Source: Polaromonas sp. (lineage in GTDB: Bacteria > Pseudomonadota > Gammaproteobacteria > Burkholderiales > Burkholderiaceae_C). Taken from it: a DNA stretch of 64,000 nt. Position numbers and translations under genes: made by a program. Under the pieces are notes generated by a model, which saw nothing but the letters and a program-made list of their open reading frames with translations, was not told where the DNA came from and did no database searches. The DNA lies in the NCBI GenBank assembly GCA_031424795.1, contig JANPIC010000133.1:12634-76633 (forward strand), in the 5' to 3' direction. This document shows positions 5,076 through 61,239 of this stretch, piece after piece (positions within the stretch are counted from its first letter, which is position 1; each line of letters opens with the position of its first letter).

Positions 5076-6008
5076 TTGACTTTAGCAATGTCTAGCGAGC
5101 GACCACCCACCATCTCCCCCAACGCCGCTGCGCACTGGCAGCGCATTGCACCTGCTGCAACGCCGTGGCTGCACGAAGAAGTAGCCAGCCGCATGGTGGA
5201 TCGTTTGCAATGGATCAACTTACAGCCCAAAACGTGGGCGCACTGGGGCGCTGTGCGAGGCGGGCAGCAGGCGCATGTGGCATTGCTTGAAAAGTATCCA
5301 GATTCAACCTATTTTTTGCCTCTAGCCGGTGAATTTATTGCCGATAAAGCTATTAAAAATATAGCAAATTATGCGAACTCCAGCAGTAAATGGCAGCTGT
5401 CTAACTTGTTTAAAGCCAAGCCAAAAGTAGATTACTCATATCCAGCCGATAGCACGGTTGACATGCTGTGGGCGAACATGCACTTGCACAACGCACTTGA
5501 TCCGCAGATGTTGATAACGCAGTGGCACAAAGCCATAGCGACGGACGGATTTTTGATGTTCTCCTGCCTGGGGCCAGACACCCTGCGCGAACTGCGTGGT
5601 ATGTACGACAAGCTGGGTTGGCCAGTGCCTAGCCACCAATTTACCGACATGCATGATTGGGGCGATATGCTCATCCAAGCCGGCTTTGCCGAGCCCGTGA
5701 TGGACATGGAGCGCATTGTGCTGACGTACGAAACGCCACAAAAGCTACTGGAAGATTTGCGTGAATTAGGCCGAAACTTGCATCCAGACCGATTTCCTGC
5801 CTTGCGTGGCAAAGCTTGGAAAGCCGAGCTAGAAGCCGCTTTGGTCGAACATTTGGCTGACCCGGCTGAGGGTGGCCGGTTAAAGCTGACCTTCGAAGTC
5901 ATTTACGGCCATGCGATGAAGCCGAAGCCAAGGGTTAAGCTGAGTGAGCATAGCGCGGTGTCATTGCGGGATATGCGGGAGATGTTGCACGGTAGCAGAG
6001 GGCGCTAG
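5076..6008 (+). CDS. BioC-like class I SAM-dependent methyltransferase carrying an in-frame repeat-derived insert
   Basis: 310 aa. The LWANMHLH...GFLMFSCLGPDTLRELR block is typical of betaproteobacterial BioC-like methyltransferases. Residues ~PLAGEFIADKAIKNIANY are encoded by repeat copy A. Confidence 0.55.
   Translation: MTLAMSSERPPTISPNAAAHWQRIAPAATPWLHEEVASRMVDRLQWINLQPKTWAHWGAVRGGQQAHVALLEKYPDSTYFLPLAGEFIADKAIKNIANYANSSSKWQLSNLFKAKPKVDYSYPADSTVDMLWANMHLHNALDPQMLITQWHKAIATDGFLMFSCLGPDTLRELRGMYDKLGWPVPSHQFTDMHDWGDMLIQAGFAEPVMDMERIVLTYETPQKLLEDLRELGRNLHPDRFPALRGKAWKAELEAALVEHLADPAEGGRLKLTFEVIYGHAMKPKPRVKLSEHSAVSLRDMREMLHGSRGR
5318..5370 (-). repeat. Dispersed two-hairpin repeat, copy A (reverse), in-frame inside the BioC-like methyltransferase
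   Basis: gcctctagccggtgaatttattgccgataaagctattaaaaatatagcaaatt matches the family consensus GCTATAAATAAAATAGC-NN-TTTAGGCAATAAATACGCCGGCTAGAGGC on the reverse strand. Confidence 0.85.
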
Positions 6009-10555: not shown

Positions 10556-11527
10556 ATGAGTAATATGCTTCAAAATGGACTTGTCGTCGCTGGTTTTGGC
10601 CGCCATGTGCTCGTTGAGACTGATGCAGGTGAACGCATTATTTGCCACCCGCGCGGTAAGAAAAACACCGCCGTGGTGGGTGACCGTATCAAATGGCTTG
10701 CAACCCAAGACGAAGGCACAATTGAGAAGCTGGAGCTTAGGAAGAACCTGTTTTATAGGCAAGATGAAATTCGCACCAAATCGTTTGCAGCCAATTTAGA
10801 CCAAATTTTGATTCTGATCGCTGCTGAGCCAGAGTTTTCAGAAAGCCAGCTGTCCCGTGCTTTGATAGCGGCTGAGGCAGAGCACATCAAACCCATCATT
10901 GCGCTGAATAAGAGCGATTTGACCGTGCCATTTGCCAAGGCTTGGGAGCGGCTTCAGCCTTACAAAGAGATGGGCTACGACGTCGTCGCCCTGTCTTTGA
11001 AGCCCAAAAATGTGGGGCTAAAGAGTGCCGCCGAAGACTTTGATATTGAGAAAATCGAGCAACAAGCCGAGCTGTTGATGTCGCTCTTACAGGGCAAAAC
11101 TACATTGGTTTTAGGGCCTTCAGGAGCTGGTAAAAGCACGCTGATCAATGCCGTCGTGCCCAATGCAACAGTGTTCACGCAAGAAATTTCACAAGCTTTG
11201 AATTCTGGCAAACACACGACCACTAGCACCACTTGGTATTGGGTGGATGAGGCAAAAACCACGGCTTTGATTGATTCACCAGGTTTTCAAGAGTTTGGTC
11301 TGAACCACATTGAAGCGAGTCATTTAGCCAGCTATATGCCCGACTTTAAAGTGCATGTGCCGAACTGCAAATTTTACAATTGCAGCCACTTGCATGAGCC
11401 GGGTTGCGGTGTTTTGGAATCCATGAAAAATGATGTAAAAAATGACTCTAGCCGTCGTAAAATAAGCTTAGAGCGCTATCGAATATATAGCAGTTTGTTT
11501 GCTGAATTATCCGAGGTTCGGTACTGA
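10556..11527 (+). CDS. rsgA: Ribosome small-subunit-dependent GTPase A
   Basis: Circularly permuted GTPase with LNKSDL upstream of GPSGAGKSTLINA, and a C-terminal zinc cluster CKFYNCSHLHEPGC. Confidence 0.9.
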   Translation: MSNMLQNGLVVAGFGRHVLVETDAGERIICHPRGKKNTAVVGDRIKWLATQDEGTIEKLELRKNLFYRQDEIRTKSFAANLDQILILIAAEPEFSESQLSRALIAAEAEHIKPIIALNKSDLTVPFAKAWERLQPYKEMGYDVVALSLKPKNVGLKSAAEDFDIEKIEQQAELLMSLLQGKTTLVLGPSGAGKSTLINAVVPNATVFTQEISQALNSGKHTTTSTTWYWVDEAKTTALIDSPGFQEFGLNHIEASHLASYMPDFKVHVPNCKFYNCSHLHEPGCGVLESMKNDVKNDSSRRKISLERYRIYSSLFAELSEVRY

Positions 11528-16874: not shown

Positions 16875-16875
16875 A

Positions 16876-16940
16876 AAAGCAATAAATATGGCTCTAACCG
16901 GTGTATTTATTGCCTTAAATGCTATTAAATTTATATTAAA
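16876..16940 (-). repeat. Dispersed repeat, copy B (reverse), intergenic, 2 nt after the TM2 gene stop
   Basis: aagcaataaatatggctctaaccggtgtatttattgccttaaatgctattaaatttatat. Contains the GCAATAAATA/TATTTATTGC hairpin arms. Confidence 0.8.
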
Positions 16941-16945
16941 TTGGC

Positions 16946-20580: not shown

Positions 20581-20652
20581 AAGCAATGAATATGCCTGCA
20601 GCCGGCGTATTTATTCATTATATAGCTATAAAAATTATAGCAATTCTAGAGG
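20581..20652 (-). repeat. Dispersed repeat, copy C (reverse), intergenic, 3 nt after the dehydrogenase stop
   Basis: aagcaatgaatatgcctgcagccggcgtatttattcattatatagctataaaaattatagcaattctagagg. Confidence 0.85.
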
Positions 20653-30385: not shown

Positions 30386-31069
30386 ATGTTTAAATATTTT
30401 GCTATGTTATTTGTAGCTGTTCAGGCAATAAATACGCCGGCTGCAGGATTAAATGCACTTGAAAACTTTTTGAAATCTACGCAATCTGGTAAAGCTGAGT
30501 TCAGCCAAGTGGTAACTAGCCCAGCTAAGACGGAAGCCAAATCGGAATCTAAGTCCGATTCAGCTGAAAAATCAGTTGCCAAAGTCAAAACCTCTAGCGG
30601 CACATTTGAATTTTCACGACCTAATCGGTTTAAGTTTGTTTACAAAAAGCCGTTCGAGCAAACCATCGTCGCCGATGGCACCACGCTGTGGTTGTTTGAC
30701 GTAGATTTGAACCAAGTCACCGCCAGAAAGCAAGCCCAAGCTTTAGGCTCTACACCTGCAGCTTTGATAGCCACGGCCGCGAGTTTGAAGGCTTTGGAAG
30801 CTGAATTCAAACTGCAAGACGCGCCTGATGCCAATGGTCTGCAATGGGTGATTGCCACCCCAAAAGCCAAAGACGGGCAGATTCAGAGCATCAAAGTTGG
30901 CTTGAAAGGTATGGCGGACACGGGTGTTTCGCTCTCGGTTCTAGAGATTTTGGATAGTTTCGGTCAGCGTTCGGTGATTAATTTTGCCAATATTGAGCGA
31001 AATGTAACTTTTAGCGCTGACAACTTCAATTTCAAACCGCCAGTGGGAGCGGATGTGATTCGGCAATAA
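30386..31069 (+). CDS. lolA: Outer-membrane lipoprotein carrier protein LolA
   Basis: Signal peptide, then LENFLKSTQSGKAEFSQ... Conserved ftsK-lolA-rarA order. The signal peptide is encoded by repeat copy H. Confidence 0.85.
   Translation: MFKYFAMLFVAVQAINTPAAGLNALENFLKSTQSGKAEFSQVVTSPAKTEAKSESKSDSAEKSVAKVKTSSGTFEFSRPNRFKFVYKKPFEQTIVADGTTLWLFDVDLNQVTARKQAQALGSTPAALIATAASLKALEAEFKLQDAPDANGLQWVIATPKAKDGQIQSIKVGLKGMADTGVSLSVLEILDSFGQRSVINFANIERNVTFSADNFNFKPPVGADVIRQ
30397..30447 (+). repeat. Dispersed repeat, copy H (forward), encodes the LolA signal peptide
   Basis: ttttgctatgttatttgtagctgttcaggcaataaatacgccggctgcagg. The stop-generating TAG positions of the consensus are altered (TTcAGG, CTgcAGG). 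Confidence 0.85.
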
Positions 31070-31094: not shown

Positions 31095-32369
31095 ATGGTA
31101 AATACTCCGCCGCTGGCAGAGCGGATGCGCCCCACCAAGCTGTCTGAAGTCATTGGGCAGCAGCATATTTTGGGCGAAGGCATGGCGTTGCGCATTGCTT
31201 TTGAGTCTGGACAGCCACACAGCTGCATTCTTTGGGGGCCGCCTGGGGTGGGGAAGACGACGATCGCGCGGTTGATGGCGAATGCATTTGATGCGCAATT
31301 CATCACCATCAGTGCGACTTTGGGTGGTGTCAAAGACATTCGGGAAGCGGTTGAGCAAGCACTCATTTGGCAAGGTCAAGGCAAACGAACCATCGTGTTT
31401 GTGGACGAAGTACACCGCTTTAACAAAGCGCAGCAAGATGCGTTTTTGCCGCATGTGGAAAGCGGTTTATTGACCTTTATTGGCGCGACGACTGAGAACC
31501 CGTCGTTTGAAGTCAACTCCGCTTTGTTGTCCCGCGCTGCTGTTTACGTGTTGCAACCACTATCACCTGCTAATTTAGAGGAAATTATTGCTCTAGCCAG
31601 CGTATTTTCTGTCTCAATAGCTATAGATAAAGTAGCAATTGACAAATTGGTGGCGTATGCAGATGGTGATGCGAGACGCTTGCTCAACACGTTAGAGAAT
31701 CTCTACATCGCCGCTGAAAAGGAAAAGATAACGACGATCACGGATGCTTGGCTCACCCAAGTGTTAGGCGAGCGCATGCGCCGCTACGACAAAGGCGGCG
31801 AGCAGTTTTACGACACCATCAGCGCTTTGCACAAAAGCGTGCGTGGCTCAGACCCTGATGCGTCGTTGTACTGGTTTGTTCGCATGTTGGATGGTGGGGC
31901 AGACCCGCGCTACATGGCGCGCCGGCTGGTTCGCATGGCCAGTGAAGACATTGGTTTGGCGGATCCGCGTGCGCTATCCATGGCGCTAGATGCTGCCAAC
32001 ACCTACGAACGACTGGGTTCGCCCGAAGGCGAGTTGGCATTGGCGCAATGTGTGATTTATCTGGCAGTTGCTCCTAAGTCAAACGCGGTTTACAAAGCCT
32101 TCAACGCCGTCAAAGCGCACATCAAAAAAGACGGTACGCGACCTGTGCCCATGCATTTGCGCAATGCACCGACCAAGTTGATGAAAGAGCTGGACTATGG
32201 CAAAGGCTACCGTTATGCACATGACGAAGCCGACGGATTTGCCGCTGGCGAGCAATATTTACCAGATGGCATGAAAGATGCTTTGTTCTATGAACCTGTA
32301 GAACGCGGTTTGGAAATCAAGATTGCAGATAAGTTGCGGACGCTGAAAAAATTAAACGCAAGAAATTAA
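31095..32369 (+). CDS. rarA: Replication-associated recombination protein A (AAA+)
   Basis: LAERMRP...GPPGVGKTT, the VDEVHRFNKAQQD motif and a C-terminal MgsA domain. Confidence 0.9.
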   Translation: MVNTPPLAERMRPTKLSEVIGQQHILGEGMALRIAFESGQPHSCILWGPPGVGKTTIARLMANAFDAQFITISATLGGVKDIREAVEQALIWQGQGKRTIVFVDEVHRFNKAQQDAFLPHVESGLLTFIGATTENPSFEVNSALLSRAAVYVLQPLSPANLEEIIALASVFSVSIAIDKVAIDKLVAYADGDARRLLNTLENLYIAAEKEKITTITDAWLTQVLGERMRRYDKGGEQFYDTISALHKSVRGSDPDASLYWFVRMLDGGADPRYMARRLVRMASEDIGLADPRALSMALDAANTYERLGSPEGELALAQCVIYLAVAPKSNAVYKAFNAVKAHIKKDGTRPVPMHLRNAPTKLMKELDYGKGYRYAHDEADGFAAGEQYLPDGMKDALFYEPVERGLEIKIADKLRTLKKLNARN

Positions 32370-36214: not shown

Positions 36215-36287
36215 TTTGCTATTTTTTGCTATAAATAATATAGCTGCTTAGGAAGTAAATACGCCGGCTAGAGGCGTATTTTTAGGC
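36215..36287 (+). repeat. Dispersed repeat, copy D (forward), intergenic after livF
   Basis: tttgctattttttgctataaataatatagctgcttaggaagtaaatacgccggctagaggcgtatttttagg, with hairpin AAATACGCC/GGCGTATTT. Confidence 0.9.
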
Positions 36288-36301
36288 TTGAATCAAAACT
36301 T

Positions 36302-39456: not shown

Positions 39457-39457
39457 T

Positions 39458-39532
39458 TTTAGCTATAAACAATATAGCTATTTAGGCAATAAATACGCCG
39501 ACTAGAGTCTGATTTCATGCTCTAGCCGGTTC
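39458..39532 (+). repeat. Dispersed repeat, copy E (forward), intergenic between the Bug gene and ppc stops
   Basis: ttttagctataaacaatatagctatttaggcaataaatacgccgactagagtctgatttcatgctctagccggt, with inverted CCGACTAGAG/CTCTAGCCGG arms. Confidence 0.9.
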
Positions 39533-43524: not shown

Positions 43525-44367
43525 GTGAAAGTCATCGTGACCCGCCCGCGCCTAGAGGCCGATGTTTGGGTCAAACAGTTGCGGGCTTTGCACTTTGATG
43601 CTGTTGCGCTACCGTTGATTCACATTGGCGCTGCGGCAGATACTGAAAGCGTTAAGTGGGTTTGGCAGAATTTGCACCAATACCGTGCAATCATGTTTGT
43701 CAGCAGCAACGCAGTTCGCTATTTTTACCCCTTAAATATGCCTATAGCCGGCGAATTTATTGACTATTCAGCTATAAAAAATATAGCAAATTTAGACAAT
43801 TCTGCATCCTATCCAAGACTGTGGGCAACCGGACCAGGCACGCGGGACGCCTTGCTGGCGCAGTCTGTGCCTAGCGATTTGATTGATTCGCCCGCTGCAG
43901 ACGCAGCACAGTTTGACTCAGAAGCGCTGTGGAATATCATCAAATATCAAGTCAAACCGGGCGATAAAGTGCTGATTGTGCGAGGCAGCACCCCACATAC
44001 CAAAGATGCTGAAGGGGTTGCCATGAACGGTCGTCCTTGGTTGGCTGACCAACTGACCGCAGCTGGTGTGCAGGTGGATGTTGTGGTTAGCTACCAGCGC
44101 AGCGCTCCAGTTTTTGATGTGTCGGAGCTGGCGCTGATGGCGCAAGCCGCAACGGATCAATCAGTCTGGTTGCTCAGCAGTTCGGAAGCGGTAGCGAATT
44201 TAGCAGCTCATTTAAAGGAGATTCCAGAGCTGAACTTGTCACAAGCCAGAGCCATTGCCACCCACCCCCGCATTGCACAGGCAGCCAGAGACGCTGGTTT
44301 TGGTGTTGTTTACGAGTCACGCCCGCTGCTGGCTGACGTGGCGGCTTCTATAGAATCTCTGCTATGA
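43525..44367 (+). CDS. hemD: Uroporphyrinogen-III synthase with an in-frame repeat-derived insert
   Basis: Sits between hemC and hemX and has a HEM4-like sequence (VIVTRP...). Residues PIAGEFIDYSAIKNIANL are encoded by repeat copy F. Confidence 0.8.
   Translation: MKVIVTRPRLEADVWVKQLRALHFDAVALPLIHIGAAADTESVKWVWQNLHQYRAIMFVSSNAVRYFYPLNMPIAGEFIDYSAIKNIANLDNSASYPRLWATGPGTRDALLAQSVPSDLIDSPAADAAQFDSEALWNIIKYQVKPGDKVLIVRGSTPHTKDAEGVAMNGRPWLADQLTAAGVQVDVVVSYQRSAPVFDVSELALMAQAATDQSVWLLSSSEAVANLAAHLKEIPELNLSQARAIATHPRIAQAARDAGFGVVYESRPLLADVAASIESLL
43741..43793 (-). repeat. Dispersed repeat, copy F (reverse), in-frame inside hemD
   Basis: cctatagccggcgaatttattgactattcagctataaaaaatatagcaaattt. Confidence 0.85.
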
Positions 44368-45530
44368 GTGACATTTCCATGCAAGACCCCCCTAACAGCC
44401 CTGAGAGCCCTGTGGCACAGGCAGCAACGACCTCAAATGCTTTGCAAAACACGGCTGCCAGTAGTAATCATGTTGGAAATACTGGCTTTTCTAAGTTTTT
44501 TACTATATTTATAATAGCAGCTTTGGCAGTATCTATGCTGGCTAGCTTCTATTTATGGCGTAAATTGACGAATATGCAAGAGCATTTGGCCAGACAAAGT
44601 GCCGATGCGACCAATTTAAGCGTCGAAGCGCGCAGCTTGGCGAAAAACGCGCAAGACGTGGCGCGGGAAGCGTCCGCGAGATCGTCTTTGAACGAAACGC
44701 GGCTGAGCGAAGTTGCCCTGCAGCGCAGCCAGTTGGACGAGTTGATGCAAAGTTTGTCCCGCTCACGCGATGAAAATTTGGTGGTGGATGTGGAGTCTGC
44801 CCTGCGTTTGGCGCAGCAGCAGGCGCAGTTAACCGGCAGTGTCGAGCCGCTTTTGGCTGCTTTGAAAACAGCAGACCAGCGTTTGGCACGTGCAGCCCAA
44901 CCCCGTTTGAACGCCGTGCGCCGAGCCTTGGCCAGTGACACCGACAAAATCAAGGCCGCAGCGGTGACAGATATTCCAAGCTTACTCGTCAAGCTGGACG
45001 AAATCAGCCGTTTGGTGGAAGACTTGCCCGTGTTGAATACGGTGACAGCGGTGGCGAGGGTTGACAAGCAAAACGCGCCATCTAACACATCATCCAAGGC
45101 GTCAGGTGCTAAATCAGCTGTAAATACCTCTGCAAACCAAGATGCCGACTGGCAAAGCAGTGTGCAAAACTTCATGCAAAACAATTGGCAAATTGTCCGT
45201 GCTGAACTTGCGAAATTGGTGCGCGTCAGCCGCATTGAAAACCCAGATGCCGTGCTGCTGTCGCCTGAGCAAACCTACTTTTTGCGTGAAAACCTCAAAC
45301 TCAAAATCCTCAATGCAAGGCTTGGTTTGTTGGGGCGGCAAATTCAGTCTGCTAAATCTGACCTAGCGTCAGTGGCGGACGATGTGCGTAAGTACAGCGA
45401 CCCAACCTCCAGACAAGCGCAGACGCTGCAAAGCGCGCTGTCACAAGTGCAGACGCAGCTGGGCAATGCCAGCATTCCTGCGCTTGATTCATCTTTAGCA
45501 GCGTTGACGCTGGCTGCGGCGGGTAAATAA
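44364..45530 (+). CDS. hemX: HemX-like membrane-anchored protein (uroporphyrinogen-III C-methyltransferase-like family)
   Basis: Single N-terminal TM anchor, then a coiled-coil-rich domain. ATGA overlap with hemD; hemCDXY order. Confidence 0.75.
   Translation: MSDISMQDPPNSPESPVAQAATTSNALQNTAASSNHVGNTGFSKFFTIFIIAALAVSMLASFYLWRKLTNMQEHLARQSADATNLSVEARSLAKNAQDVAREASARSSLNETRLSEVALQRSQLDELMQSLSRSRDENLVVDVESALRLAQQQAQLTGSVEPLLAALKTADQRLARAAQPRLNAVRRALASDTDKIKAAAVTDIPSLLVKLDEISRLVEDLPVLNTVTAVARVDKQNAPSNTSSKASGAKSAVNTSANQDADWQSSVQNFMQNNWQIVRAELAKLVRVSRIENPDAVLLSPEQTYFLRENLKLKILNARLGLLGRQIQSAKSDLASVADDVRKYSDPTSRQAQTLQSALSQVQTQLGNASIPALDSSLAALTLAAAGK
44496..44546 (+). repeat. Dispersed repeat, copy M (forward, degenerate), encodes the HemX TM anchor
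   Basis: tttttactatatttataatagcagctttggcagtatctatgctggctagc aligns colinearly with the consensus, with about 10 mismatches. Confidence 0.6.
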
Positions 45531-46859: not shown

Positions 46860-49454
46860 ATGACGCTTATGTCGTTCTGGCATGGTCGGATTAGCTTGCT
46901 TTTTGCAACCTTGTTGGCTTGGGTAATGGGCACTTGGTTGCAGCTGCTGCAAACGTCTTTGAATGATGCTTTATTTTATGCATCATATTTGGCTCTAGCC
47001 GGCGTGTTTGTTGCCTGTATTGCTATAAATGGTAGAGTAAAAAATACGAAAAATAAACACCCATATTTCCACATTTTGTTACCCATTTGCATACTGTTAG
47101 CCAGCGGCTGTGCAGCTTTTGGTTTGACTGGTTTGCGTGCTGTTGCCTACGCCTCGCATCAGCTGTTGCCGGCTTACGAAGGGCGGGACATCCAGGTCGT
47201 CGGGGTTGTCTCTGCCATGCCGCATATCAACGAGATGGGAACACGGTTTCAGCTTGATGTTGAGTCTGCACAATTGCTGACTCTTGCATCTTCAAATACG
47301 GAGCAACTTCAAAGCAAGCAAGTTGTTGAGTTGCCTTCTAAAATTTCACTCAGTTGGTATGGCAGCGTTTTTGGTGCTGTGGAAAATGCGGACGACTTGG
47401 CAACACTGCAGCGCAAACCCATGCCTATTCTTCCCGGTGAACGTTGGCAAATGACGGTACGACTCAAAGCACCGCATGGCAACAGCAACCCAGGCGGTTT
47501 TGACTTTGAACTGTGGCTGTGGGAGCAAGGCATACAAGCGACTGGTTATGTGCGCACGGGCGCAAACGACGTCGCACCCGTACGCATCGCGCAGACCTGG
47601 CAGCATCCAGTTGAACAATTGCGTTACAAAGTGCGAGATGCCATTTTTGCGCGTATGTCATCGCACATGTCACCTTCAGACTCTTTCAAAAATTCAAGTG
47701 AAGCAGGTATCGTTGCCGCTTTGGTGACGGGTGACCAGCAGTCGATTGACCGTGCCGATTGGGATGTCTTTCGCACCACAGGCGTTGCGCATTTGATGAG
47801 TATTTCAGGTCTCCACATCACCATGTTTGCTTGGGGCGCAGTGCTTGTGGTGGGTATGTTGTACAGACGATCAACGCGCTTATGTTTGGCTTACCCCGCA
47901 ACAAACGCTGCTTTGCTGGGCGGTTTGATGCTGGCGACAGGCTACGCGGTCTTTAGTGGTTGGGGTGTGCCATCGCAGCGGACGATTTTGATGCTGGCAA
48001 CGGTAACGTTGCTCAGATTATTTGGCAAACGCTGGCCTTGGCCAACGGTGTGGATGTTGGCTTGCGCCGTAGTGGTTGCGGTTGACCCTTGGGCATTGCT
48101 GCAAGCGGGTTTTTGGCTCAGCTTTGTGGCAGTCGGCGTGTTGTTTGCCACGGATATTTCGACCAATACCCCAAGACTTTCGGATCGCAATCATGCTGAT
48201 GTCGATGCCAATGACAATGCTTCATCAAAATCAAACTTGGCAGCAACATTCAAAAAGAAATTATGGCTAAGTGGTCGTGAGCAGTTCATCATCACCATGG
48301 TGCTTGCACCCTTGACGCTGTTGCTGTTTGGTCAAGTTTCTGTGGTCGGGCTTTTGGCAAATGCTTTGGCCATACCGTGGGTGACGCTGGTTGTGACGCC
48401 CTTGGCAATGCTGGGCGCAATTGCTTCTCCGATGTGGGATTTAGCCGGTTTGGCTGTGCATGTGTTAAGCCGATTTTTAGGTTTACTGGCTGGATTGCCG
48501 TTTGCCACAGTCTCTGTTGCTGTCCCGCATCTGCTGGTGAGTGTTATTGCTATGTTAGGTGGTGTTCTTTTGGTTTTGCCATGGCCTTGGCAACTGCGCC
48601 TTCTCGGCTTCCCTTTGTTGCTGCCAGTTATTTTGTGGCAAGCGCCTCGCCCAGCAGACGGGCAATTTGAATTGATAGCGGCTGATATTGGTCAAGGCAA
48701 CGCCGTCATCATACGAACGGCAAAGCACACGCTGGTGTATGACGCGGGGCCGCGTTATTCCATTGACAGCGATGCCGGTCATAGGGTGTTGGTTCCGCTA
48801 TTGCGGGCGACGAATGAAAGCGTTGATACCGTCATGCTCAGCCACCGCGATATTGACCATTCAGGCGGCATCAAATCTGTGCTGGCCATGCATCCGAAAG
48901 CAAACTTCATCAGTTCAATTGAAAGCACCCATGAATTACAAGTTCTCCGTCCCGTGCAGCGTTGTGTGGCTGGGCAAGCGTGGCAATGGGATGGCGTTGA
49001 TTTTGCTGTGCTTCACCCATCAACGTCAGATTATGAATCGCCACAAAAATCAAACGCCATGAGTTGTGTGTTGCGCATCAGCACGCCACAAGCCAGTGTT
49101 TTGTTGGCTGGCGATATTGAACTGGCGCAGGAAACAAGACTGGTATCAAACCAACAAAACGATGGTTTGAAATTAACGAGTACGATGTTATTGGTGCCGC
49201 ACCACGGCAGCAAAACCTCGTCTAGTGCTGCATTTCTAGAGGCTGTTCAACCGCAGTTTGCGGTCGTGCAAGCGGGTTACAGAAATCGTTTCGGTCATCC
49301 CGCCGCAAATGTTCTGGAGCGCTATAACGGACGCAATATCAAAGTGATAGACACAGCGCATTGTGGAGCAATGCTTTGGAGCAGCTCAACACCGAAGGAA
49401 GCGCGTTGCCAACGTGAAATTGCTGGGCGGTATTGGCATCATCAAGTGCCGTAA
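46860..49454 (+). CDS. comEC: DNA internalization-related competence protein ComEC/Rec2
   Basis: 864 aa. Competence (polytopic) domain with GVAHLMSISGLH, plus a C-terminal metallo-beta-lactamase domain (SHRDIDHSGG). Confidence 0.9.
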   Translation: MTLMSFWHGRISLLFATLLAWVMGTWLQLLQTSLNDALFYASYLALAGVFVACIAINGRVKNTKNKHPYFHILLPICILLASGCAAFGLTGLRAVAYASHQLLPAYEGRDIQVVGVVSAMPHINEMGTRFQLDVESAQLLTLASSNTEQLQSKQVVELPSKISLSWYGSVFGAVENADDLATLQRKPMPILPGERWQMTVRLKAPHGNSNPGGFDFELWLWEQGIQATGYVRTGANDVAPVRIAQTWQHPVEQLRYKVRDAIFARMSSHMSPSDSFKNSSEAGIVAALVTGDQQSIDRADWDVFRTTGVAHLMSISGLHITMFAWGAVLVVGMLYRRSTRLCLAYPATNAALLGGLMLATGYAVFSGWGVPSQRTILMLATVTLLRLFGKRWPWPTVWMLACAVVVAVDPWALLQAGFWLSFVAVGVLFATDISTNTPRLSDRNHADVDANDNASSKSNLAATFKKKLWLSGREQFIITMVLAPLTLLLFGQVSVVGLLANALAIPWVTLVVTPLAMLGAIASPMWDLAGLAVHVLSRFLGLLAGLPFATVSVAVPHLLVSVIAMLGGVLLVLPWPWQLRLLGFPLLLPVILWQAPRPADGQFELIAADIGQGNAVIIRTAKHTLVYDAGPRYSIDSDAGHRVLVPLLRATNESVDTVMLSHRDIDHSGGIKSVLAMHPKANFISSIESTHELQVLRPVQRCVAGQAWQWDGVDFAVLHPSTSDYESPQKSNAMSCVLRISTPQASVLLAGDIELAQETRLVSNQQNDGLKLTSTMLLVPHHGSKTSSSAAFLEAVQPQFAVVQAGYRNRFGHPAANVLERYNGRNIKVIDTAHCGAMLWSSSTPKEARCQREIAGRYWHHQVP
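46991..47035 (-). repeat. Dispersed repeat, copy G (reverse, partial), in-frame near the ComEC N-terminus
   Basis: ggctctagccggcgtgtttgttgcctgtattgctataaatggtag. Confidence 0.7.
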
Positions 49455-49470
49455 CATATGTTTAGCTTAT

Positions 49471-50559
49471 CTATTTTCCCATCTGCTGAGCTACTTCACG
49501 ACCTAGATCAATCACTGACATGGCATAGTAGCTGCTCCAGTTGTAGCGGGTGATGGCGTAAAAATTCTCTGTTCCAGCCACATAGCTAGGCGTATTTTCT
49601 GCAATGCTAGGGTCGCCATTTTGCAGTTCTATCAACGCTAGTGGACCGGTATGTGCAGCACCAACAGCATTCAAATTTGCGCCTTTGGCCATGAAGCTGG
49701 TGACGCTAAACGTAGGCAAAATATCAGGTGCCATCAGTGCATCCATGTCTAATTTTGCAGTATCAAAAGTAACGGGGTAATGCGTTGGCATACCTGGTTG
49801 CCACTTGAAGGCTTTGAAATAGTTGGCAACAGAGCCGATCACATCGGCAGGGCTGGTGAACAAATCGACCTTGCCATCTTCATCAAAATCAATCGCATAT
49901 TTCACCCAGCTGCTAGGCATAAACTGCGGTAAACCCATGGCACCTGCGTAGCTGCCGCGTGGCGACAGCGGGTCAACACCAGAGCGTGAGGTCAGCGATA
50001 AAAAATGTTCTAACTCGCCTTTGAAAAACGCCTGCCGTTCAGCAGCGCGAGGGTGGGATGCAGGGAAGTCAAACGTTAAAGTCGTCAGCGCATCAATCAC
50101 CCGATAGCTGCCCGTATCGCGCCCATAAATGGTTTCAACACCAATGATGCCCACGATGATCTCCGCTGGCACACCGTATTCTTTCTCCGCTTTGGTTAGT
50201 GCCGCCGCATTGTCTTGCCAAAATTTAACGCCTGCCTTGATACGGACAGGGTCAATAAACCGACTGCGATAAACGCGCCAGTTTTTGGCGACACCCCTAG
50301 GAGCTGGCTGCATCAGTCGTGAGATTTGCCCAATGTTCCTAGCTTGACCAATTGCATTCCGTACCCACTCTTTGTCCAAATCGCGCCGTTCAGCAATATC
50401 GTCAGCCATCTGCATGGCCTCTGTGCGTGTGGCGTAGAGTTCGTACTGTGTTGAAGGTTTTGCGCTAACCTGTTTTTTATTGCCAATTTGTGCTGTAGCC
50501 GGCGTATTTATTGCTTGAAATGCTATAAATAGCATAGTAAAAATTAATCTTTGTTGCAT
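49471..50559 (-). CDS. mltB: Lytic murein transglycosylase B
   Basis: GIIGVETIYG and AGAMGLPQFMPSSW motifs. The signal peptide is encoded by repeat copy I. Confidence 0.85.
   Translation of the reverse strand: MQQRLIFTMLFIAFQAINTPATAQIGNKKQVSAKPSTQYELYATRTEAMQMADDIAERRDLDKEWVRNAIGQARNIGQISRLMQPAPRGVAKNWRVYRSRFIDPVRIKAGVKFWQDNAAALTKAEKEYGVPAEIIVGIIGVETIYGRDTGSYRVIDALTTLTFDFPASHPRAAERQAFFKGELEHFLSLTSRSGVDPLSPRGSYAGAMGLPQFMPSSWVKYAIDFDEDGKVDLFTSPADVIGSVANYFKAFKWQPGMPTHYPVTFDTAKLDMDALMAPDILPTFSVTSFMAKGANLNAVGAAHTGPLALIELQNGDPSIAENTPSYVAGTENFYAITRYNWSSYYAMSVIDLGREVAQQMGK
50492..50541 (-). repeat. Dispersed repeat, copy I (reverse on +, forward relative to mltB), encodes the MltB signal peptide
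   Basis: gctgtagccggcgtatttattgcttgaaatgctataaatagcatagtaaa. Confidence 0.85.
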
Positions 50560-55708: not shown

Positions 55709-57025
55709 ATGACATTATTCACCGCACTCGCGCCAGCCACCTCGCTCACTGTATCTTCTGCCATGCCGACGCAGGACATAGCGCAATGGTTTGCCCAGTT
55801 AGCCACACCAAAATCGCTGCTTGAGCTGGCCGTGCTGGCGCTCTGTGCGGCCTTGGCCTGGGGCTTGCTGTGGCTGATGCGGCGCAGTTTGGCGCATGTG
55901 GACGACAAATCCATTCTGTTTGGCAAGCGCCTGGTGGATGGCGTGCTGTTCCCTTTGTTGCTGTTGTGTTTGGCCTTTGTGGCGCGCGTGGTCTTGCTGC
56001 GCACCATGGAGGTGCATGTGCTGCACATTGCGATACCTGTTTTGCTCGCCTTGGTTGTCATCCGCGTGGGTGTCAAGGTGCTGCAGGTCGCTTTTAAAAA
56101 ATCGCCACTGGTGCGGTTTTTAGAGCGCACTATTTCTTGGGTGGTCTGGCTGGCGCTGGTGTTGTGGATCAGCGGTTTGCTGCCCTTGGTGCTGCAAGAA
56201 ATGGAACAGATTACCTGGCAGGTTGGCGACAGCGCACTGTCTTTGCGCACCATGCTGGATGGCGCACTGACCGCTGGAGCGGTGCTGTTGTTGGCTTTGT
56301 GGGTCGCATCGGCGGTGGAATCCAAGCTGCTGCGCCACGCCAGCGGTGGTGAGCTGTCGCTGCGCAAAGCCGCCAGCAACGCGGTGCGGGCGGTGTTGAT
56401 TTTTGTGAGCCTGTTGTTGTCGCTCAGCATCGTTGGTATTGATTTGACCGCGCTGTCCGTTCTAGGCGGTGCTGTTGGTGTGGGTATTGGCTTGGGGCTG
56501 CAAAAACTGGCGTCCAACTACGTCAGCGGCTTCGTCATCCTGACCGAGCGCAGCATGCGCATTGGTGACTATGTGCGGGTTGACAGCTTTGAAGGCCGCA
56601 TCACCGACATCAAAACCCGCTACACCGTCATCCGCTCAGGCAGCGGGCGTGAATCCATCGTCCCTAACGAAATGCTGGTCACCAACCGCGTTGAAAATTT
56701 GACCCTCAGCGACACCCTGATAGCGCAGCAAACATTGGTGTCCGTGGGCTACGCCAGCGACGTCGCGCTGGTCCGACGCCTGCTGGTAGAAGCCGCGCTG
56801 GGACAAAGCCGCGTCATGGCTGAACCCGCGCCCATTTCAGCTTTGACGGCCTTTGGCGCAAATGGTCTGGAATTTACCTTGAATTACTGGATCACCGATC
56901 CCGAAAATGGCCAGCTCAACATCCGCTCAGACGTCAACGTCGCCATCTTGACCCACTTGCGCAGCCATAGCATCGACATCCCGTACCCGCAGCAGGTGGT
57001 GCATGACGCGAAACCACGGGTTTAG
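55709..57025 (+). CDS. MscS-family mechanosensitive ion channel protein
   Basis: Several TM helices, then the LASNYVSGFVILTERSMRIGDYV beta-domain signature. Confidence 0.85.
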   Translation: MTLFTALAPATSLTVSSAMPTQDIAQWFAQLATPKSLLELAVLALCAALAWGLLWLMRRSLAHVDDKSILFGKRLVDGVLFPLLLLCLAFVARVVLLRTMEVHVLHIAIPVLLALVVIRVGVKVLQVAFKKSPLVRFLERTISWVVWLALVLWISGLLPLVLQEMEQITWQVGDSALSLRTMLDGALTAGAVLLLALWVASAVESKLLRHASGGELSLRKAASNAVRAVLIFVSLLLSLSIVGIDLTALSVLGGAVGVGIGLGLQKLASNYVSGFVILTERSMRIGDYVRVDSFEGRITDIKTRYTVIRSGSGRESIVPNEMLVTNRVENLTLSDTLIAQQTLVSVGYASDVALVRRLLVEAALGQSRVMAEPAPISALTAFGANGLEFTLNYWITDPENGQLNIRSDVNVAILTHLRSHSIDIPYPQQVVHDAKPRV

Positions 57026-57053
57026 CTCGGGGGGCCTCGTTTTAAGCAGACGT

Positions 57054-57090
57054 AAAAAAAACCACCAAATCTTTCGATTGGTGGTTTAGT
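57054..57090 (+). terminator. Probable terminator after the MscS-family gene
   Basis: aaaaaaaaccaccaaatc-tttc-gattggtggttt (one bulge). Confidence 0.5.
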
Positions 57091-57134
57091 TGCTTAACTT
57101 TTAACAGTTTGGCTTGCTAGCTGACAGCGCACCC

Positions 57135-57166
57135 AACAAAACGGCGAACTACAAATTTGCAGTTCG
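57135..57166 (-). terminator. Possible terminator after rpsT
   Basis: CGAACT-ACAAATTTGC-AGTTCG hairpin, followed on the minus strand by a T-rich tract (GTTTTGTT). Confidence 0.35.
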
Positions 57167-57186
57167 GGCGATTTGCTTAAATTGAA

Positions 57187-57489
57187 TTAAGCAGCGGCCA
57201 AGACCAGAGTCTTGACTTTGGTAGACAAACGGCTCTTATCGCGCGCTGCCTTGTTTTTGTGGAAGATGCCTTTGTCAGCCACGGTGTCAACCACAGCTTG
57301 CATCTTCGCAAAAGCTTCAGTTGCTTTTGCTTTGTCGCCAGCGATAACGGCTTTTTCGACGTTTTTCACAGCGGTACGGTATTTAGAGCGCAAAGAAGTG
57401 TTTGCAGCATTGATTTTGACGTCTTGGCGTACGCGCTTACGGCCAGAGGCTAGACGAGGGTTTTTCTTTTTTGGTTTGGCTGATGCCAT
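57187..57489 (-). CDS. rpsT: 30S ribosomal protein S20
   Basis: [39 protein letters not shown]. Confidence 0.95.
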
Positions 57490-57526
57490 GATTTATGTTC
57501 CTTAAATGTATGTGGATGATGTCAGC

Positions 57527-57546
57527 TAAGCCTATGATTCTAGCAT
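57527..57546 (-). promoter_or_regulatory. Putative rpsT promoter
   Basis: The minus strand reads GCTAGAATCATAGGCTTAG. Confidence 0.45.
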
Positions 57547-57619
57547 TTTTGAGGACTCCAGTCCACGCATTGCTGGGCTTAGATGGCTGCGAGGCTTTTG
57601 AAATAGCGCTAAAATGGAT

Positions 57620-57635
57620 GTATTACATGTAATAC
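57620..57635 (+). promoter_or_regulatory. 16-bp perfect palindrome, candidate operator of the toxin-antitoxin operon
   Basis: GTATTACATGTAATAC lies immediately upstream of the AGGAG Shine-Dalgarno of the RHH antitoxin gene. Confidence 0.5.
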
Positions 57636-57647
57636 AGGAGTTCTGAC

Positions 57648-57884
57648 ATGTCCAGTTCCGTGATGACCATCCGCTTATCCCAAGACGATACAGTCAGATT
57701 GGCAAATTTGTCTGAAAAAACGCACCGCCCCAAATCTTTTTACATCAAAGAGGCACTTGCTCGCTATTTCGAAGATATGGAAGATCTTTATTTAGCCGAA
57801 AGCGCTATGGCTCGCATCCGCTCAGGGGAAGAGCGTACTTACACCTTAGACGAAGTAGAGGCCAAGCTTGGTTTGGCGGGTTGA
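57648..57884 (+). CDS. Type II antitoxin, ribbon-helix-helix (CopG/RelB/ParD-like)
   Basis: 78 aa. RHH N-terminus (MTIRLSQDDTVRLANLSEKTHRPKSFYIKEALARYF). Overlaps the downstream RelE/ParE gene by 17 nt. Confidence 0.8.
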   Translation: MSSSVMTIRLSQDDTVRLANLSEKTHRPKSFYIKEALARYFEDMEDLYLAESAMARIRSGEERTYTLDEVEAKLGLAG

Positions 57885-58137
57885 GCTGTCGGAGACGGCG
57901 CTTAAAAACCTCTCCAAGCTCGACAAACCAGTAGCACTACGAATTCGTAATTTTCTTCGCGACAGGCTGTCCGCATTAGACGACCCGCGCAGCATAGGCG
58001 AGGCACTTAAAGGCGCAAAGCTGGGTGATTTGTGGAAATACCGAGTCGGCGATTATCGTGCCATAGCCAGCATCGAAGACGGCAAAGTCGTCATCTTGGT
58101 TTTAGCAATTGGAAATCGTAAAGAAGTTTATCGTTGA
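57868..58137 (+). CDS. Type II toxin, RelE/ParE superfamily
   Basis: 89 aa. LKNLSKLDKPVALRI...LWKYRVGDYRAIASIEDGKVVILVLAIGNRKEVY is the canonical RelE/StbE pattern. TTG start. Confidence 0.85.
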   Translation: MVWRVELSETALKNLSKLDKPVALRIRNFLRDRLSALDDPRSIGEALKGAKLGDLWKYRVGDYRAIASIEDGKVVILVLAIGNRKEVYR

Positions 58138-58145
58138 GGCTAAGT

Positions 58146-58198
58146 TTTGCTATATTTAAAATAGCACTTTAGGCAATAAATACGCCGGCTAGAGGTGT
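58146..58198 (+). repeat. Dispersed repeat, copy J (forward), 8 nt after the relE/parE stop; left border of the low-GC cassette
   Basis: ttttgctatatttaaaatagcactttaggcaataaatacgccggctagaggtg. Shares an identical 29-nt core with copy K. Confidence 0.9.
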
Positions 58199-58243
58199 AA
58201 ATGAGGAATAAATTAGAGGTTTTATGCACTAATCTTGCATTTA

Positions 58244-58582
58244 TCAAACTTCATTTTCAAGTAACTCAGTCGCTTGAGCCAATTTTTCATTTTTGCAATA
58301 CTCGGCATAGTTTTTGCCGAATTCTTTTTTATACCAAGATCCGACAATATAGCGGCTTAAGAAATAGCTAACTCTTTGCAAAAAAATAAAGACTGGAAAG
58401 ACAATTAATATTACAAATAGCATTTCTATGCTAAGTGAATTCCATGCTATGTCACGATACCAGCGTATTGCACCCAATACAGACGTCAAAAAAAATGTAC
58501 TGTTAAGTACAATTCTCTGCATGCGTAAATTTGCATTTCGGAACTTGAAAAACTCTAATTTTTTAATTTCATCCATTTGCAC
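58244..58582 (-). CDS. Hypothetical small membrane protein (two predicted TM helices), low-GC cassette
   Basis: Hydrophobic segments IVLNSTFFLTSVLGAI and MLFVILIVFPVFIFL with a charged C-terminal tail. The likely start is ATG 58576 (AGG upstream). I recognise no family. Confidence 0.6.
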   Translation of the reverse strand: MQMDEIKKLEFFKFRNANLRMQRIVLNSTFFLTSVLGAIRWYRDIAWNSLSIEMLFVILIVFPVFIFLQRVSYFLSRYIVGSWYKKEFGKNYAEYCKNEKLAQATELLENEV

Positions 58583-58723
58583 AAACCTTATTTTTATTTA
58601 CATTTAAAACTTGAAAATATTTTTTAAACTTATGAGTGAATAATGCATTTTAGTTCTAAATAAAATAGAATTTTAGATAATAAATGCGATTGCCAAAAAC
58701 ATAAGTTATATGAAAATATGGAT

Positions 58724-59374
58724 TTAAGATTTGTCGAAACTTTGAAATTTTTCGATAAGTTCAATAATTCGTTTGGCTTGGGCTGCATACTGTTTGTAGC
58801 AGCCTTCAATATTATCAACGACCAAGCTATGGTTGCCGTTTTCTAGCTTCTGGAATGTGAGATTGTTGTAGTACTTTGCACGTTCAACAGTTTCGGCGTT
58901 GAAATCGAGGGCGCTTCGGATTTCTAGCAATGCTCTTTGAGTATCCGTGTCGAAGCTCCATATTGCGGAAACCCTAGCATCCAAAAGTGGGGTTCCGTAT
59001 TTTTGCAAAGTAAGGCTCTTTCCAGCTGGAGCTTTCTTGCTGAGGAAGAATTGATTCAATTGCTCGTCTGTAGCATGAAGGTATGGTTTAAGTACTGAGC
59101 AGATCTTCTGCGCATCAGTGTCAGCAGTTTCAGTGCTTAGGTGCTTAATAAGCCATTTGAGGCTTTGCCTAGTCATTGTGCCTTGGTGCTCTTCAATGGT
59201 ATAGCTACAAAGCGCTAATTTAATCTTTAGAGAGGAAAGTTCTGATCTAATTGCTTCTCGACCAAGCTTGTTTTCTCGGAGCCGCTTTATTTCATCTACG
59301 ACTATCGGGGCTAATAGACCTAGTAGCCATCCCAAGAGCAAAAGTGCAAGCTTCTCCATGGTTTCCTTAAGCAT
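58724..59374 (-). CDS. Hypothetical protein with one N-terminal TM helix and a ~185-aa helical domain, low-GC cassette
   Basis: LALLLLGWLLGLLAPIVV anchor. The likely start is ATG 59359, preceded by AAGGA. I recognise no catalytic or family motif. Confidence 0.65.
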   Translation of the reverse strand: MLKETMEKLALLLLGWLLGLLAPIVVDEIKRLRENKLGREAIRSELSSLKIKLALCSYTIEEHQGTMTRQSLKWLIKHLSTETADTDAQKICSVLKPYLHATDEQLNQFFLSKKAPAGKSLTLQKYGTPLLDARVSAIWSFDTDTQRALLEIRSALDFNAETVERAKYYNNLTFQKLENGNHSLVVDNIEGCYKQYAAQAKRIIELIEKFQSFDKS

Positions 59375-59508
59375 TTTGTTCGAAAAGGTCTAGAAGTAAT
59401 TAGTATTGCAAAAGTTGCAAAAATTTCTTAGAGAGTAATGCAATATAACTTAAATTTCACGAAAACAGCATCAAATTTAGTCAAATTTCACTGTTAAATT
59501 ATTTAATC

Positions 59509-59568
59509 TGCTATAAATAAAATAGCGCTTTAGGCAATAAATACGCCGGCTAGAGGCATATTTAAAGG
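59509..59568 (+). repeat. Dispersed repeat, copy K (forward), right border of the low-GC cassette, upstream of murJ
   Basis: ctgctataaataaaatagcgctttaggcaataaatacgccggctagaggcatatttaaagg. Confidence 0.9.
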
Positions 59569-59667
59569 CTAAAATGGGACAAATCAGCCATAAATCCACA
59601 AAAACAAGCCAAATCTACCTTTAAACGGCTTCCGTAGCTCCGAATTAAGCCGCTAAACTCAATCCCC

Positions 59668-61239
59668 ATGTCCCTGCTCAAATCCGCCTCCGTCATCTCG
59701 CTGCTCACGCTGGTATCCCGCATCACAGGTATGGTGCGTGACCAGTTGATGGCGGCTATGTTTGGGGCTTCGGCTATGACGGATGCGTTTAACGTGGCGT
59801 TTCGGCTGCCGAATATGTTCAGGCGGCTGTTTGCGGAAGGGGCGTTTAGCCAGGCGTTTGTGCCTGTTTTGGGGGCGAGCAAGGTTAAAAACGGGGACGA
59901 GGCGACCAAGGTGTTGGTTGATCGTGTCGCCACCGTGCTGTTTTGGGTGTTGGTGCTCACTTGCGTGATTGGCGTAGCCGCTGCGCCTGCGCTGGTGTGG
60001 GTGATGGCCAGCGGGCTGCAGCAAAACCAGCAGGGGTTTGACGCTGCGGTGTTCATGGCGCGGTGGATGTTTCCTTACATTGGGTTCATGTCGCTGGTGG
60101 CGCTGGGCGCGGGGGTGCTGAACACCTACAGACGCTTTGCCGTGCCTGCCGTGACGCCTGTTTTGCTGAATATGGCGATGATTTTGGCGGCTTGGCTGGG
60201 TGCACCGTGGTTCAAAAGCATGGGGATTCAGCCGATTTACGCGATGTCTATGGGTGTTATTGGTGGTGGCGTGTTGCAGTTGGTGATGCAGTGGCTGGCG
60301 CTGCGCAAAATTGGCATGTTGCCGAAAATTCGCGCCAATTGGGCGGAAGTGAAGGCGGCTTGGGCGGATGCGGGCGTTAAAAACGTGGCTAAATTGATGC
60401 TGCCAGCGCTTCTCGGCGTGGGGGTGGCGCATATTTCGGCGATTATCAACCTGCAGATCGCCTCGCATTTAACGCCCGGCAGTGTCAGCTGGATGAGCTA
60501 CGCCGAGCGGTTGATGGAGTTTCCCACCGCCATGCTGGGCGTTGCGCTGGGCGTGGTGCTGACGCCGCGCTTGGTGGCGGCCAAGGCCAGCGGTGACGAC
60601 GCCACCTATTCCGCCATGATTGACTGGGGGCTGCGGCTGGTGATCTTGCTGGCTGTGCCTTGTACCGTGGCGTTGCTGCTGTTTGCCAAGCCGCTGGTGG
60701 CGACTTTGTTCCATTACGGCGTGTTTTCAAGCAACGATGTGCAGCAGGTGACCACGCCTTTGATGGGCTACGGCGTCGGTTTGATTGGTTTGGTCGCTAT
60801 CAAAATATTGGCGCCCGGGTTTTACGCCAGCCAAGACATCAAAACCCCAGTCAAAATCGCCATTGCTGTGCTCATCATCACCCAGCTGCTGAATATCGCA
60901 CTGGTGCCGCTGTTTGCGCACGCGGGGCTGGCGCTGGCGATTGGCTTGGGTGCGTTGATCAACGCGCTGTGGCTGCTGATTGGTTTGATCAAGCGTGGCA
61001 GCTACCAGCCGTTGCCGGGGTGGGGTAAATTCATCGCCCAAGTCGTCATTGCCAGCGCCTTATTAGGGGTCTGGTTGTGGTGGAGCGCGGGTTATGTTGA
61101 TTGGGTTGCGCTAAAAAGTGACGTTTTTAAGAGAATAATGCTTCTAGCCGGCGCATTAATTGCCTCTGCAGCTATTTATTTTATAGCATTGATGGTTGCT
61201 GGTGTGAAAATCAAGACTTTGCTGCGGGGTCAAGGCTAG
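59668..61239 (+). CDS. murJ: Lipid II flippase MurJ (MviN)
   Basis: MSLLKSASVISLLTLVSRITGMVRDQLMAAMFGAS...FRLPNMFRRLFAEGAFSQAFVP. Confidence 0.95.
   Translation: MSLLKSASVISLLTLVSRITGMVRDQLMAAMFGASAMTDAFNVAFRLPNMFRRLFAEGAFSQAFVPVLGASKVKNGDEATKVLVDRVATVLFWVLVLTCVIGVAAAPALVWVMASGLQQNQQGFDAAVFMARWMFPYIGFMSLVALGAGVLNTYRRFAVPAVTPVLLNMAMILAAWLGAPWFKSMGIQPIYAMSMGVIGGGVLQLVMQWLALRKIGMLPKIRANWAEVKAAWADAGVKNVAKLMLPALLGVGVAHISAIINLQIASHLTPGSVSWMSYAERLMEFPTAMLGVALGVVLTPRLVAAKASGDDATYSAMIDWGLRLVILLAVPCTVALLLFAKPLVATLFHYGVFSSNDVQQVTTPLMGYGVGLIGLVAIKILAPGFYASQDIKTPVKIAIAVLIITQLLNIALVPLFAHAGLALAIGLGALINALWLLIGLIKRGSYQPLPGWGKFIAQVVIASALLGVWLWWSAGYVDWVALKSDVFKRIMLLAGALIASAAIYFIALMVAGVKIKTLLRGQG
61141..61190 (-). 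repeat. Dispersed repeat, copy L (reverse), in-frame in the last TM region of MurJ
   Basis: cttctagccggcgcattaattgcctctgcagctatttattttatagcatt. Confidence 0.75.

Follow-up and report, generated by a model that had tools for sequence, protein, structure and literature searches.

A strain-variable islet between murJ and rpsT of a Polaromonas-like bacterium, with two unrelated genes, one from a family carried by integrons

Do two unusually AT-rich genes that lie side by side next to murJ form one functional system, and if not, how did they come to be neighbors? The question arises in a stretch of 64,000 nt assigned to Polaromonas sp. (positions 12,634 to 76,633 of the forward strand of contig JANPIC010000133.1, assembly GCA_031424795.1), which was analyzed as a whole and is called the window here. 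An earlier note, made from the sequence alone, had described window positions 58199-59508 as a foreign two-gene cassette encoding membrane proteins, with a proposed role in abortive infection, phage exclusion or toxin-immunity. We find the two genes, ORF216 and ORF112, within a strain-variable insertion that interrupts the murJ-rpsT spacer, otherwise 160 nt long, in a Polaromonas-like bacterium of the cryosphere/freshwater kind. The reading that we consider probable is that this islet holds two genes unrelated to each other, one of them a former integron cassette, and that its contents turn over by recombination through flanking repeats, conserved flanks or both.

The composition of the region differs sharply from that of its flanks, as had been claimed. 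G+C is 35.3% over 58199-59508 against a window mean of 51.0% (standard deviation 3.5% for 1310-bp windows), the minimum for an interval of that size across the 64 kb, and four previous hand counts (11/60, 20/60, 24/60 and 38/60 G+C) were reproduced exactly. G+C at third codon positions is 0.43 in ORF216 and 0.32 in ORF112, compared with 0.70–0.72 in murJ, mscS and the deacetylase gene. Both open reading frames (ORFs) were found on the minus strand where they had been placed, ORF216 at 58724-59374 (216 aa) and ORF112 at 58244-58582 (112 aa), and the spacer between them is 141 bp long, with a measured G+C of 18%. Comparison with the orthologous contig L009 (89% nucleotide identity to the window locus) gave ratios of nonsynonymous to synonymous substitution rates (dN/dS) of 0.17 for ORF216 (dS 0.24) and 0.20 for ORF112 (dS 0.16). 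These are real genes under purifying selection, and the DNA that holds them is foreign and accessory. It is scarcely credible that either or both are chance reading frames within AT-rich non-coding DNA: the base composition is of the right kind, and ORF112 has very few relatives and a poor structure model, but both dN/dS ratios speak against chance at these dS values, as do the conservation of the ORF112 frame at 60% amino acid identity in contigs L006-L008 and the more than 1,000 clusters of relatives and confident fold of ORF216. For ORF216 this explanation is already refuted.

The extent of the islet can be read from strains that lack it. In three contigs encoding an identical S20 protein (L191, L193 and L198) the site is empty, with murJ and rpsT 160 nt apart. 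Other contigs with identical S20 have, at the same site, an 82-aa gene (L190), an Imp-YgjV gene (L194) or a 163-aa gene (L197), each followed by parE-relB, or else non-coding-looking DNA followed by parE-relB (L199); a 147-aa gene sits in the same slot in L118, from a Polaromonas metagenome-assembled genome (MAG). The flanks are identical or near-identical across the empty and alternative-cargo sites. Aligned with the empty site of L191, homology stops at window position 59654 and restarts at 57553. Against the occupied sites of L190, L194, L197, L199 and L118 it stops at 59505/59502, and against L190, L197, L118 and L192 it restarts at 58224; the boundary of the toxin-antitoxin slot falls at 57550. 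Because identical-S20 strains are empty here or have other cargo, the 2.1 kb from 57554 to 59653 (39.2% G+C) is an accessory islet composed of relBE and a cargo slot, and it is modular and strain-variable, since both cargo and relBE alleles differ among strains. It thus has two slots, a toxin-antitoxin slot by rpsT, occupied here by relB-parE, and a repeat-bracketed cargo slot by murJ. No copies of the alternative cargo genes were found elsewhere among the loci compared, and the islet encodes no recombinase or other mobility gene.

These same strains bear on a housekeeping explanation, in which the pair would serve a conserved envelope or other core function linked to the lipid II flippase gene murJ or to the expression of rpsT, its odd composition being incidental. 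All that points that way is the position by murJ and the fact that both genes encode membrane proteins, while strains with identical S20 lack both genes or have unrelated genes in their place, and relatives of ORF216 occur in unrelated contexts. With the empty sites it is already refuted, and we give it next to no weight.

The location beside a RelB/ParE module at a conserved junction, noted previously, was borne out. The RelB-type antitoxin gene (57648-57884, plus strand; NF048017 90.1 bits, cut-off 50; PF19807 38.4 bits) overlaps by 17 nt the start of the ParE/RelE-family toxin gene (57868-58137, plus strand; PF05016 56.8 bits, cut-off 23; TIGR02385 28.9 bits), which is convergent with ORF112. 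The window relBE allele is 95.8% identical in nucleotide sequence to that of L190; L194 and L197 have a 72% allele. L009 has ORF216, ORF112 and an orphan HicB-like gene at this site. A further occupant was seen in L192 (4233-4912), an 82-aa HicB-like/YlcI-type gene paired with a PIN_3 toxin gene by rpsT. The same 82-aa gene lies directly after ORF112 in L009-L012 (2564-2812 in L009) with no PIN gene, and looks like an orphan antitoxin left by deletion.

Are ORF216 and ORF112 nevertheless one system? As a single two-gene module (for abortive infection or phage exclusion, or a membrane toxin with its immunity protein) they would move and act together, perhaps with the adjacent RelB/ParE pair. 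They are adjacent and in the same orientation, share foreign composition and purifying selection, encode two membrane proteins with toxin-antitoxin genes flanking, and are jointly present in the four closest metagenomic contigs, L009-L012. This joint presence, however, is shared descent rather than independent association, since those contigs are 89% identical in nucleotide sequence. Co-occurrence elsewhere, whose absence had been named beforehand as a refutation, was looked for and not found: some 70 other loci of the ORF216 family have no ORF112 relative, nor was any recurrent neighbor family found across them. The sole distant relative of ORF112 (60% identity; L006-L008) has no ORF216 with it; it belongs to a series of small genes in one orientation and is preceded by a TIR-domain gene. 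Between the two window genes, moreover, stand the AT-rich spacer and a decayed copy of the repeat that bounds the slot, and neither protein matches PADLOC. There is no obligate partnership between the two, and the claim of a functional two-gene cassette is unsupported; already weakened by the missing co-occurrence, it seems to us improbable. The cargo slot here contains two unrelated single-gene units, each with a copy of the repeat after it, a decayed one in the case of ORF216.

ORF216 (58724-59374, minus strand) is predicted to be a single-pass membrane-anchored helical-bundle protein, and belongs to a large unnamed family. Its start had been placed at ATG 59359; the family alignment favors ATG 59374 instead, because relatives retain the five extra N-terminal residues and the second Met is not conserved, some relatives having F or L there. 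Beyond 57 close relatives, searching 1.84 billion representatives with a profile gave 1,193 clusters (at the 50% identity level) with E ≤ 0.001 and 890 with E ≤ 1e-10; among the best 150 of the 1,193, nearly all are full-length single-stretch matches of ~200–230 aa. Family members are ~210 aa long, each with one GxxxG transmembrane helix. In the motif G15-x-x-x-G19 of the window protein, W16 and G19 never vary and G15 hardly does, and a basic stretch follows; a second strongly conserved block reads LQKYxTPLLDARVSALWSF. The N-terminal hydrophobic helix already recognized is present, and in the all-alpha AlphaFold2 model (pLDDT, the predicted local distance difference test, 89; pTM, the predicted template modeling score, 0.79) it extends into a helix of ~60 residues, followed by a helical bundle. 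This bundle would lie in the cytoplasm by the positive-inside rule, because the basic stretch follows the transmembrane segment.

Neither protein could be placed in a named family, in agreement with the earlier note. Neither ORF216 nor ORF112 matched anything in Pfam, NCBIfam, PADLOC or PHROGs; with PADLOC-DB 2.0 (systems up to 2023) neither matches at E ≤ 1. Pfam, PADLOC and NCBIfam searches with 32 diverse relatives of ORF216 gave no consistent match, only scattered single PADLOC matches with E ≥ 0.009. A sequence-profile search of the PDB returned a spurious match (E 0.26), and Foldseek of the ORF216 model against PDB and BFVD returned generic helical bundles (best TM-score ~0.4, none with E ≤ 0.001). 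No match to ORF216 was found by tblastn in plasmid and phage collections. The source annotations of its relatives all read 'hypothetical protein', as did every match in a third protein search with a diverse ORF216 profile, none having a Pfam domain.

What the ORF216 family does show is a pedigree. We took as an integron cassette an ORF with an attC site directly 3′ of it and a place in an array by intI/attI or among clustered attC sites, attC being an imperfect palindrome of the form R'' RYYYAAC ... R' GTTRRRY. P0007, a relative with 69% identity to ORF216, is a cassette of a canonical integron in contigs L013-L016, where a divergent integron integrase gene (IntI; TIGR02249, 465.9 bits, cut-off 265) is followed by two toxin-antitoxin cassettes and then P0007, with GTTAGGC just 5′ of its start and a 117-nt GCCTAAC...GTTAGGC site just 3′ of the gene. 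A strict attC search of the ORF216-family loci, 63 further metagenomic loci among them, found 39 sites on the gene strand in 353 kb, at 17 of 73 loci, versus 6–10 sites per strand in 770 kb of control Polaromonas DNA. The maximum density was nine sites in a single 5.8-kb contig, and attC arrays occur in L132, L136, L146-L148 and L152. The attC begins 2–14 nt past the stop codon, or overlaps it, in 8 of 61 family loci, and GTTAGGC or GTTAGAC lies 17–31 nt 5′ of the start in about 14. Around a quarter of the ~70 loci with ORF216 relatives are canonical integron arrays, and others have attC remnants. Such remnants are present in L002 (Hydrogenophilales), L005 (Variovorax) and L001, where the relatives are single genes between housekeeping genes, 10–15 G+C points below their flanks in L001 and L002. 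The ORF216 family circulates as integron gene cassettes. One relative, P0231 (334 aa), joins an ORF216-like part to a PF00589 tyrosine-recombinase domain, probably through a gene-call fusion of a cassette with the neighboring integrase.

At the window locus itself the strict search found no attC and no core site, and the spacers fold no better than shuffled sequences, so that a canonical attC was rejected there. Nor did the 64-kb window yield an integron-integrase relative (tblastn, E ≤ 1) or an attC cluster. Its only attC-like candidates are a 73-nt palindrome at 3101-3173, with perfectly complementary GCCCAAC...GTTGGGC ends and a fold of about -25 kcal/mol, and a weaker one at 4546-4678. Since its relatives are integron-borne, the window ORF216 is nevertheless likely to descend from an integron cassette whose attC was lost.

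ORF112 (58244-58582, minus strand) is a lineage-restricted small membrane protein. Its probable start at ATG 58576, which makes it 110 aa, agrees with the start of its relatives. Of the two hydrophobic helices that had been described, one is strong (residues 48–66, Kyte-Doolittle 2.8); the second segment is only weakly hydrophobic. Its relatives form five clusters only, one of them 60% identical with the frame kept, and its AlphaFold2 model is poor (pLDDT 68, pTM 0.34). We regard it as a putative independent small membrane protein that would be no partner of ORF216.

How, then, does cargo enter and leave? Overlooked previously was a direct repeat of 65–75 nt, on the minus strand, that flanks the pair. 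RepA (59503-59577; nhmmer E 8.9e-19) forms the murJ edge of the cargo slot and RepC (58143-58214; E 8.5e-17) the parE edge; their 29-nt cores are identical. A decayed copy, RepB' (58652-58716), lies in the AT-rich spacer, with 60% identity to RepC over 65 nt and a score below the nhmmer threshold. In L009 the equivalent of RepB' is 78% identical to that contig's own RepA, and the RepC repeat is missing from L009-type strains. The repeat has the core CTAGCCGGCGTATTTATTGCCTAAA, followed by a GCTAT-N7-ATAGC hairpin.

This repeat is widespread. Within the window the repeat profile detects 17 copies, roughly one every 3.8 kb: RepC, RepA and copies at 1210-1258, 5303-5372, 8105-8168, 11431-11497, 16875-16944, 20581-20647, 30396-30463, 31569-31641, 36223-36292, 39457-39525, 43719-43794, 44498-44568, 46973-47044, 50476-50543 and 61125-61190. 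In 770 kb of related loci there are 261 copies; 227 of 263 lie outside ORFs, and 71% are 3′ of a co-oriented gene. The DNA that flanks them has normal G+C. A scan for the exact core found it in more than 109 loci. The overwhelming majority belong to around twelve MAGs of Polaromonas or Comamonadaceae, a few others being strays from MAGs labeled differently, and this distribution also identifies the lineage of the window. The consensus is palindromic (72.6% of cells paired, compared with 31–46% when slid). With its many copies, mostly extragenic position and palindromy, the repeat resembles those of the repetitive extragenic palindrome (REP) type. The copy at 61125-61190 is inside the 3′ coding end of murJ (59668-61239). 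It is kept in place in the orthologs of L118, L190, L191, L193, L194 and L197-L199, and therefore the dispersed repeat appears here to be part of a conserved reading frame.

Three other identities for the repeat were considered. It is no att site specific to this cassette, occurring as it does genome-wide in DNA of normal G+C. A sigma-70 promoter suggested by eye (TTGCCT-16-TATAGC/T) was unreported by a promoter scan and is contradicted by the preference for positions 3′ of genes. A role as structured RNA or single-stranded DNA found no support, there being no consensus fold and no covariation of the hairpins. The repeat has no Rfam match and lacks the arm order and core of attC.

The repeat might nonetheless be the working recombination site of a cassette system that has no integrase, circular units of gene plus repeat being inserted at a repeat already in place, in the manner of integron cassettes at attC/attI, with ORF216 and ORF112 two cassettes captured in series. 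The layout of the window, repeat-gene-repeat'-gene-repeat with a repeat after each gene, is what such a system would leave, and the cargo exactly fills the space between the repeat edges. The repeat is missing from the empty murJ-rpsT site and present twice, in direct orientation, at all occupied ones; more generally, adjacent repeat pairs are direct in 113 cases versus inverted in 55, and the preference for positions after co-oriented genes fits as well. Co-oriented arrays of five or six repeats, 300–1300 nt apart, separate toxin-antitoxin cassettes in L039 (1906-5785), L124 (2490-5573), L052 (5673-7673) and L057 (2019-6032), and each inter-repeat interval of L039 and L124 has one or two small genes, those of L039 including by Pfam a DUF433 pair, HicB, HepT/MNT and HTH+Fic. 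A single cassette is all that distinguishes L039 from L052, and its junction lies within a repeat. The arrays are integron-like in layout; no attC or integrase was seen in them. Against such a system are the sheer frequency of the repeat among core genes of normal G+C, even within the murJ frame, the absence of a recombinase near it and of any integron-integrase relative in the 770 kb of repeat-bearing loci, its lack of the attC core and arm order, hairpins that have no covariation support, and junctions that shift from one cargo to another. Plain RecA recombination at 75-nt direct repeats, together with allele replacement mediated by the flanks, explains all of these observations. A dedicated site-specific system at the repeat is possible, and we judge it unlikely.

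For the strain-variable islet that we favor, ordinary recombination of this kind is enough. Cargo would be exchanged through the flanking repeats and/or the conserved flanks by no enzyme of the element's own, since the islet encodes no recombinase. Several points nevertheless weigh on the other side. Several other cargos share 45–75 nt inside the repeats, so the junctions are not at one fixed nucleotide, and a repeat this common could stand in three successive spacers partly by coincidence. No remnant of attC is detectable at the window's own copy of ORF216, whose topology comes solely from charge distribution. The occurrence of ORF216 and ORF112 together in the four closest contigs may reflect a partnership specific to that lineage. 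Finally, no homology supports any function: the profile databases (PADLOC, Pfam, NCBIfam, PHROGs) gave none, and PDB and BFVD nothing significant.

Two features of the cargo slots of other strains lie close to the repeats. In L190, L197, L199 and L118 a conserved leader of ~75 nt follows RepA, and a tail of ~45 nt before RepC is common to all four; in L118 the leader (1227-1150, minus strand) has a possible 20-codon mini-ORF, MNRLFRNRRIVLQVLRFALR. The window and L194 are without this leader and tail. Outside the islet, a hairpin with a T-run lies between the convergent mscS and rpsT (57038-57092); it gave a weak, sub-threshold Rfam match (RF02618, E 0.11), and is most likely a plain bidirectional terminator. 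Rfam found nothing relevant over 56900-59800.

The proposed role in abortive infection, exclusion or toxin-immunity has no direct support, there being no homology to defense systems and only the context to suggest it. A narrower version that we hold tentatively is that ORF216 acts alone, as a membrane-tethered, oligomerizing helical-bundle protein in conflict with phages or mobile elements. The invariant GxxxG/Trp transmembrane helix would oligomerize in the inner membrane, the conserved bundle, predicted to be cytoplasmic, might be a sensing or interaction module, and the role could be one in inter-genome conflict, such as exclusion of phages or mobile elements by membrane perturbation. We favor conflict among the specific roles because of the cassette pedigree, because toxin-antitoxin and restriction-like genes are neighbors in several contexts, and because anti-phage functions are frequent among the cassettes of chromosomal integrons, where their enrichment has been reported (bioRxiv 10.1101/2024.07.02.601686). 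Unrelated accessory roles at the membrane are in sum at least as likely. In either case ORF216 offers a way into a very large family (at 50% identity, more than 1,000 clusters) whose fold is confident and unmatched; as this family recurs as an integron cassette, it is a reasonable candidate for functional screens of cassette genes, phage defense included.

A bolder combination, to which we would give rather long odds, is that the ~75-nt repeat is an attC analog with ORF216 and ORF112 as serial captures and that, separately, ORF216 founds a family of defense effectors spread by integrons. If true, the repeat would act as a portable site for recombination, marking the limits of single-gene and toxin-antitoxin cassettes, assembling co-oriented arrays without an integrase and giving rise to small cassette slots at junctions of core genes, that of rpsT and murJ among them. 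ORF216 and ORF112 would then be captures of a previously undescribed cassette-exchange system, and ORF216 the first of a new family of single-gene, membrane-anchored defense effectors. The locus is also a clean natural example of cassette turnover, one core junction being either empty or filled with at least five cargos, and it raises the question whether REP-like repeats scattered through a genome are sites at which genes are exchanged by recombination.

As a whole the locus is an ordinary kind of accessory islet, a variable intergenic islet with a former integron cassette; what is more unusual is the repeat, found at cassette boundaries both at this site and in toxin-antitoxin arrays of other loci. 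It can be compared with repetitive extragenic palindromes of the REP type and bacterial interspersed mosaic elements (BIMEs) (PMC3333891, PMC3733652). Like these it is high in copy number, mostly extragenic, preferentially placed 3′ of genes, imperfectly palindromic and lineage-specific. Unlike these it is longer (~75 nt), AT-rich and conserved mainly in primary sequence, and in co-oriented arrays its copies stand between toxin-antitoxin cassettes.

The relatives of ORF216 resemble integron cassettes in being single, promoterless-looking ORFs with GTTAGGC 5′ and a 60–130-nt GCCTAAC...GTTAGGC attC 3′, and in lying in arrays by IntI, with toxin-antitoxin cassettes among them. They are also small, and their G+C is below that of the host. 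The window ORF216 differs, with no attC, core site or nearby integrase, and is placed between two housekeeping genes and bracketed by another repeat. The neighboring pair resembles type II toxin-antitoxin systems of the RelB/ParE(RelE) kind in its matches to curated models and its overlapping genes with the antitoxin first, but it is a unit separate from ORF216/ORF112, swapped in sister strains for the 72% allele or for a PIN/HicB-like pair.

Minimal mobile elements, or intergenic variable islets, were described in Neisseria. The murJ-rpsT site shares with them a spacer between conserved genes that is empty or holds differing small gene sets according to strain, an insert with no mobility gene, and plausible exchange via the conserved flanks. 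It differs in that its cargo slot is also bounded by direct copies of a dispersed repeat, and in that one of its cargo genes has a demonstrable integron pedigree.

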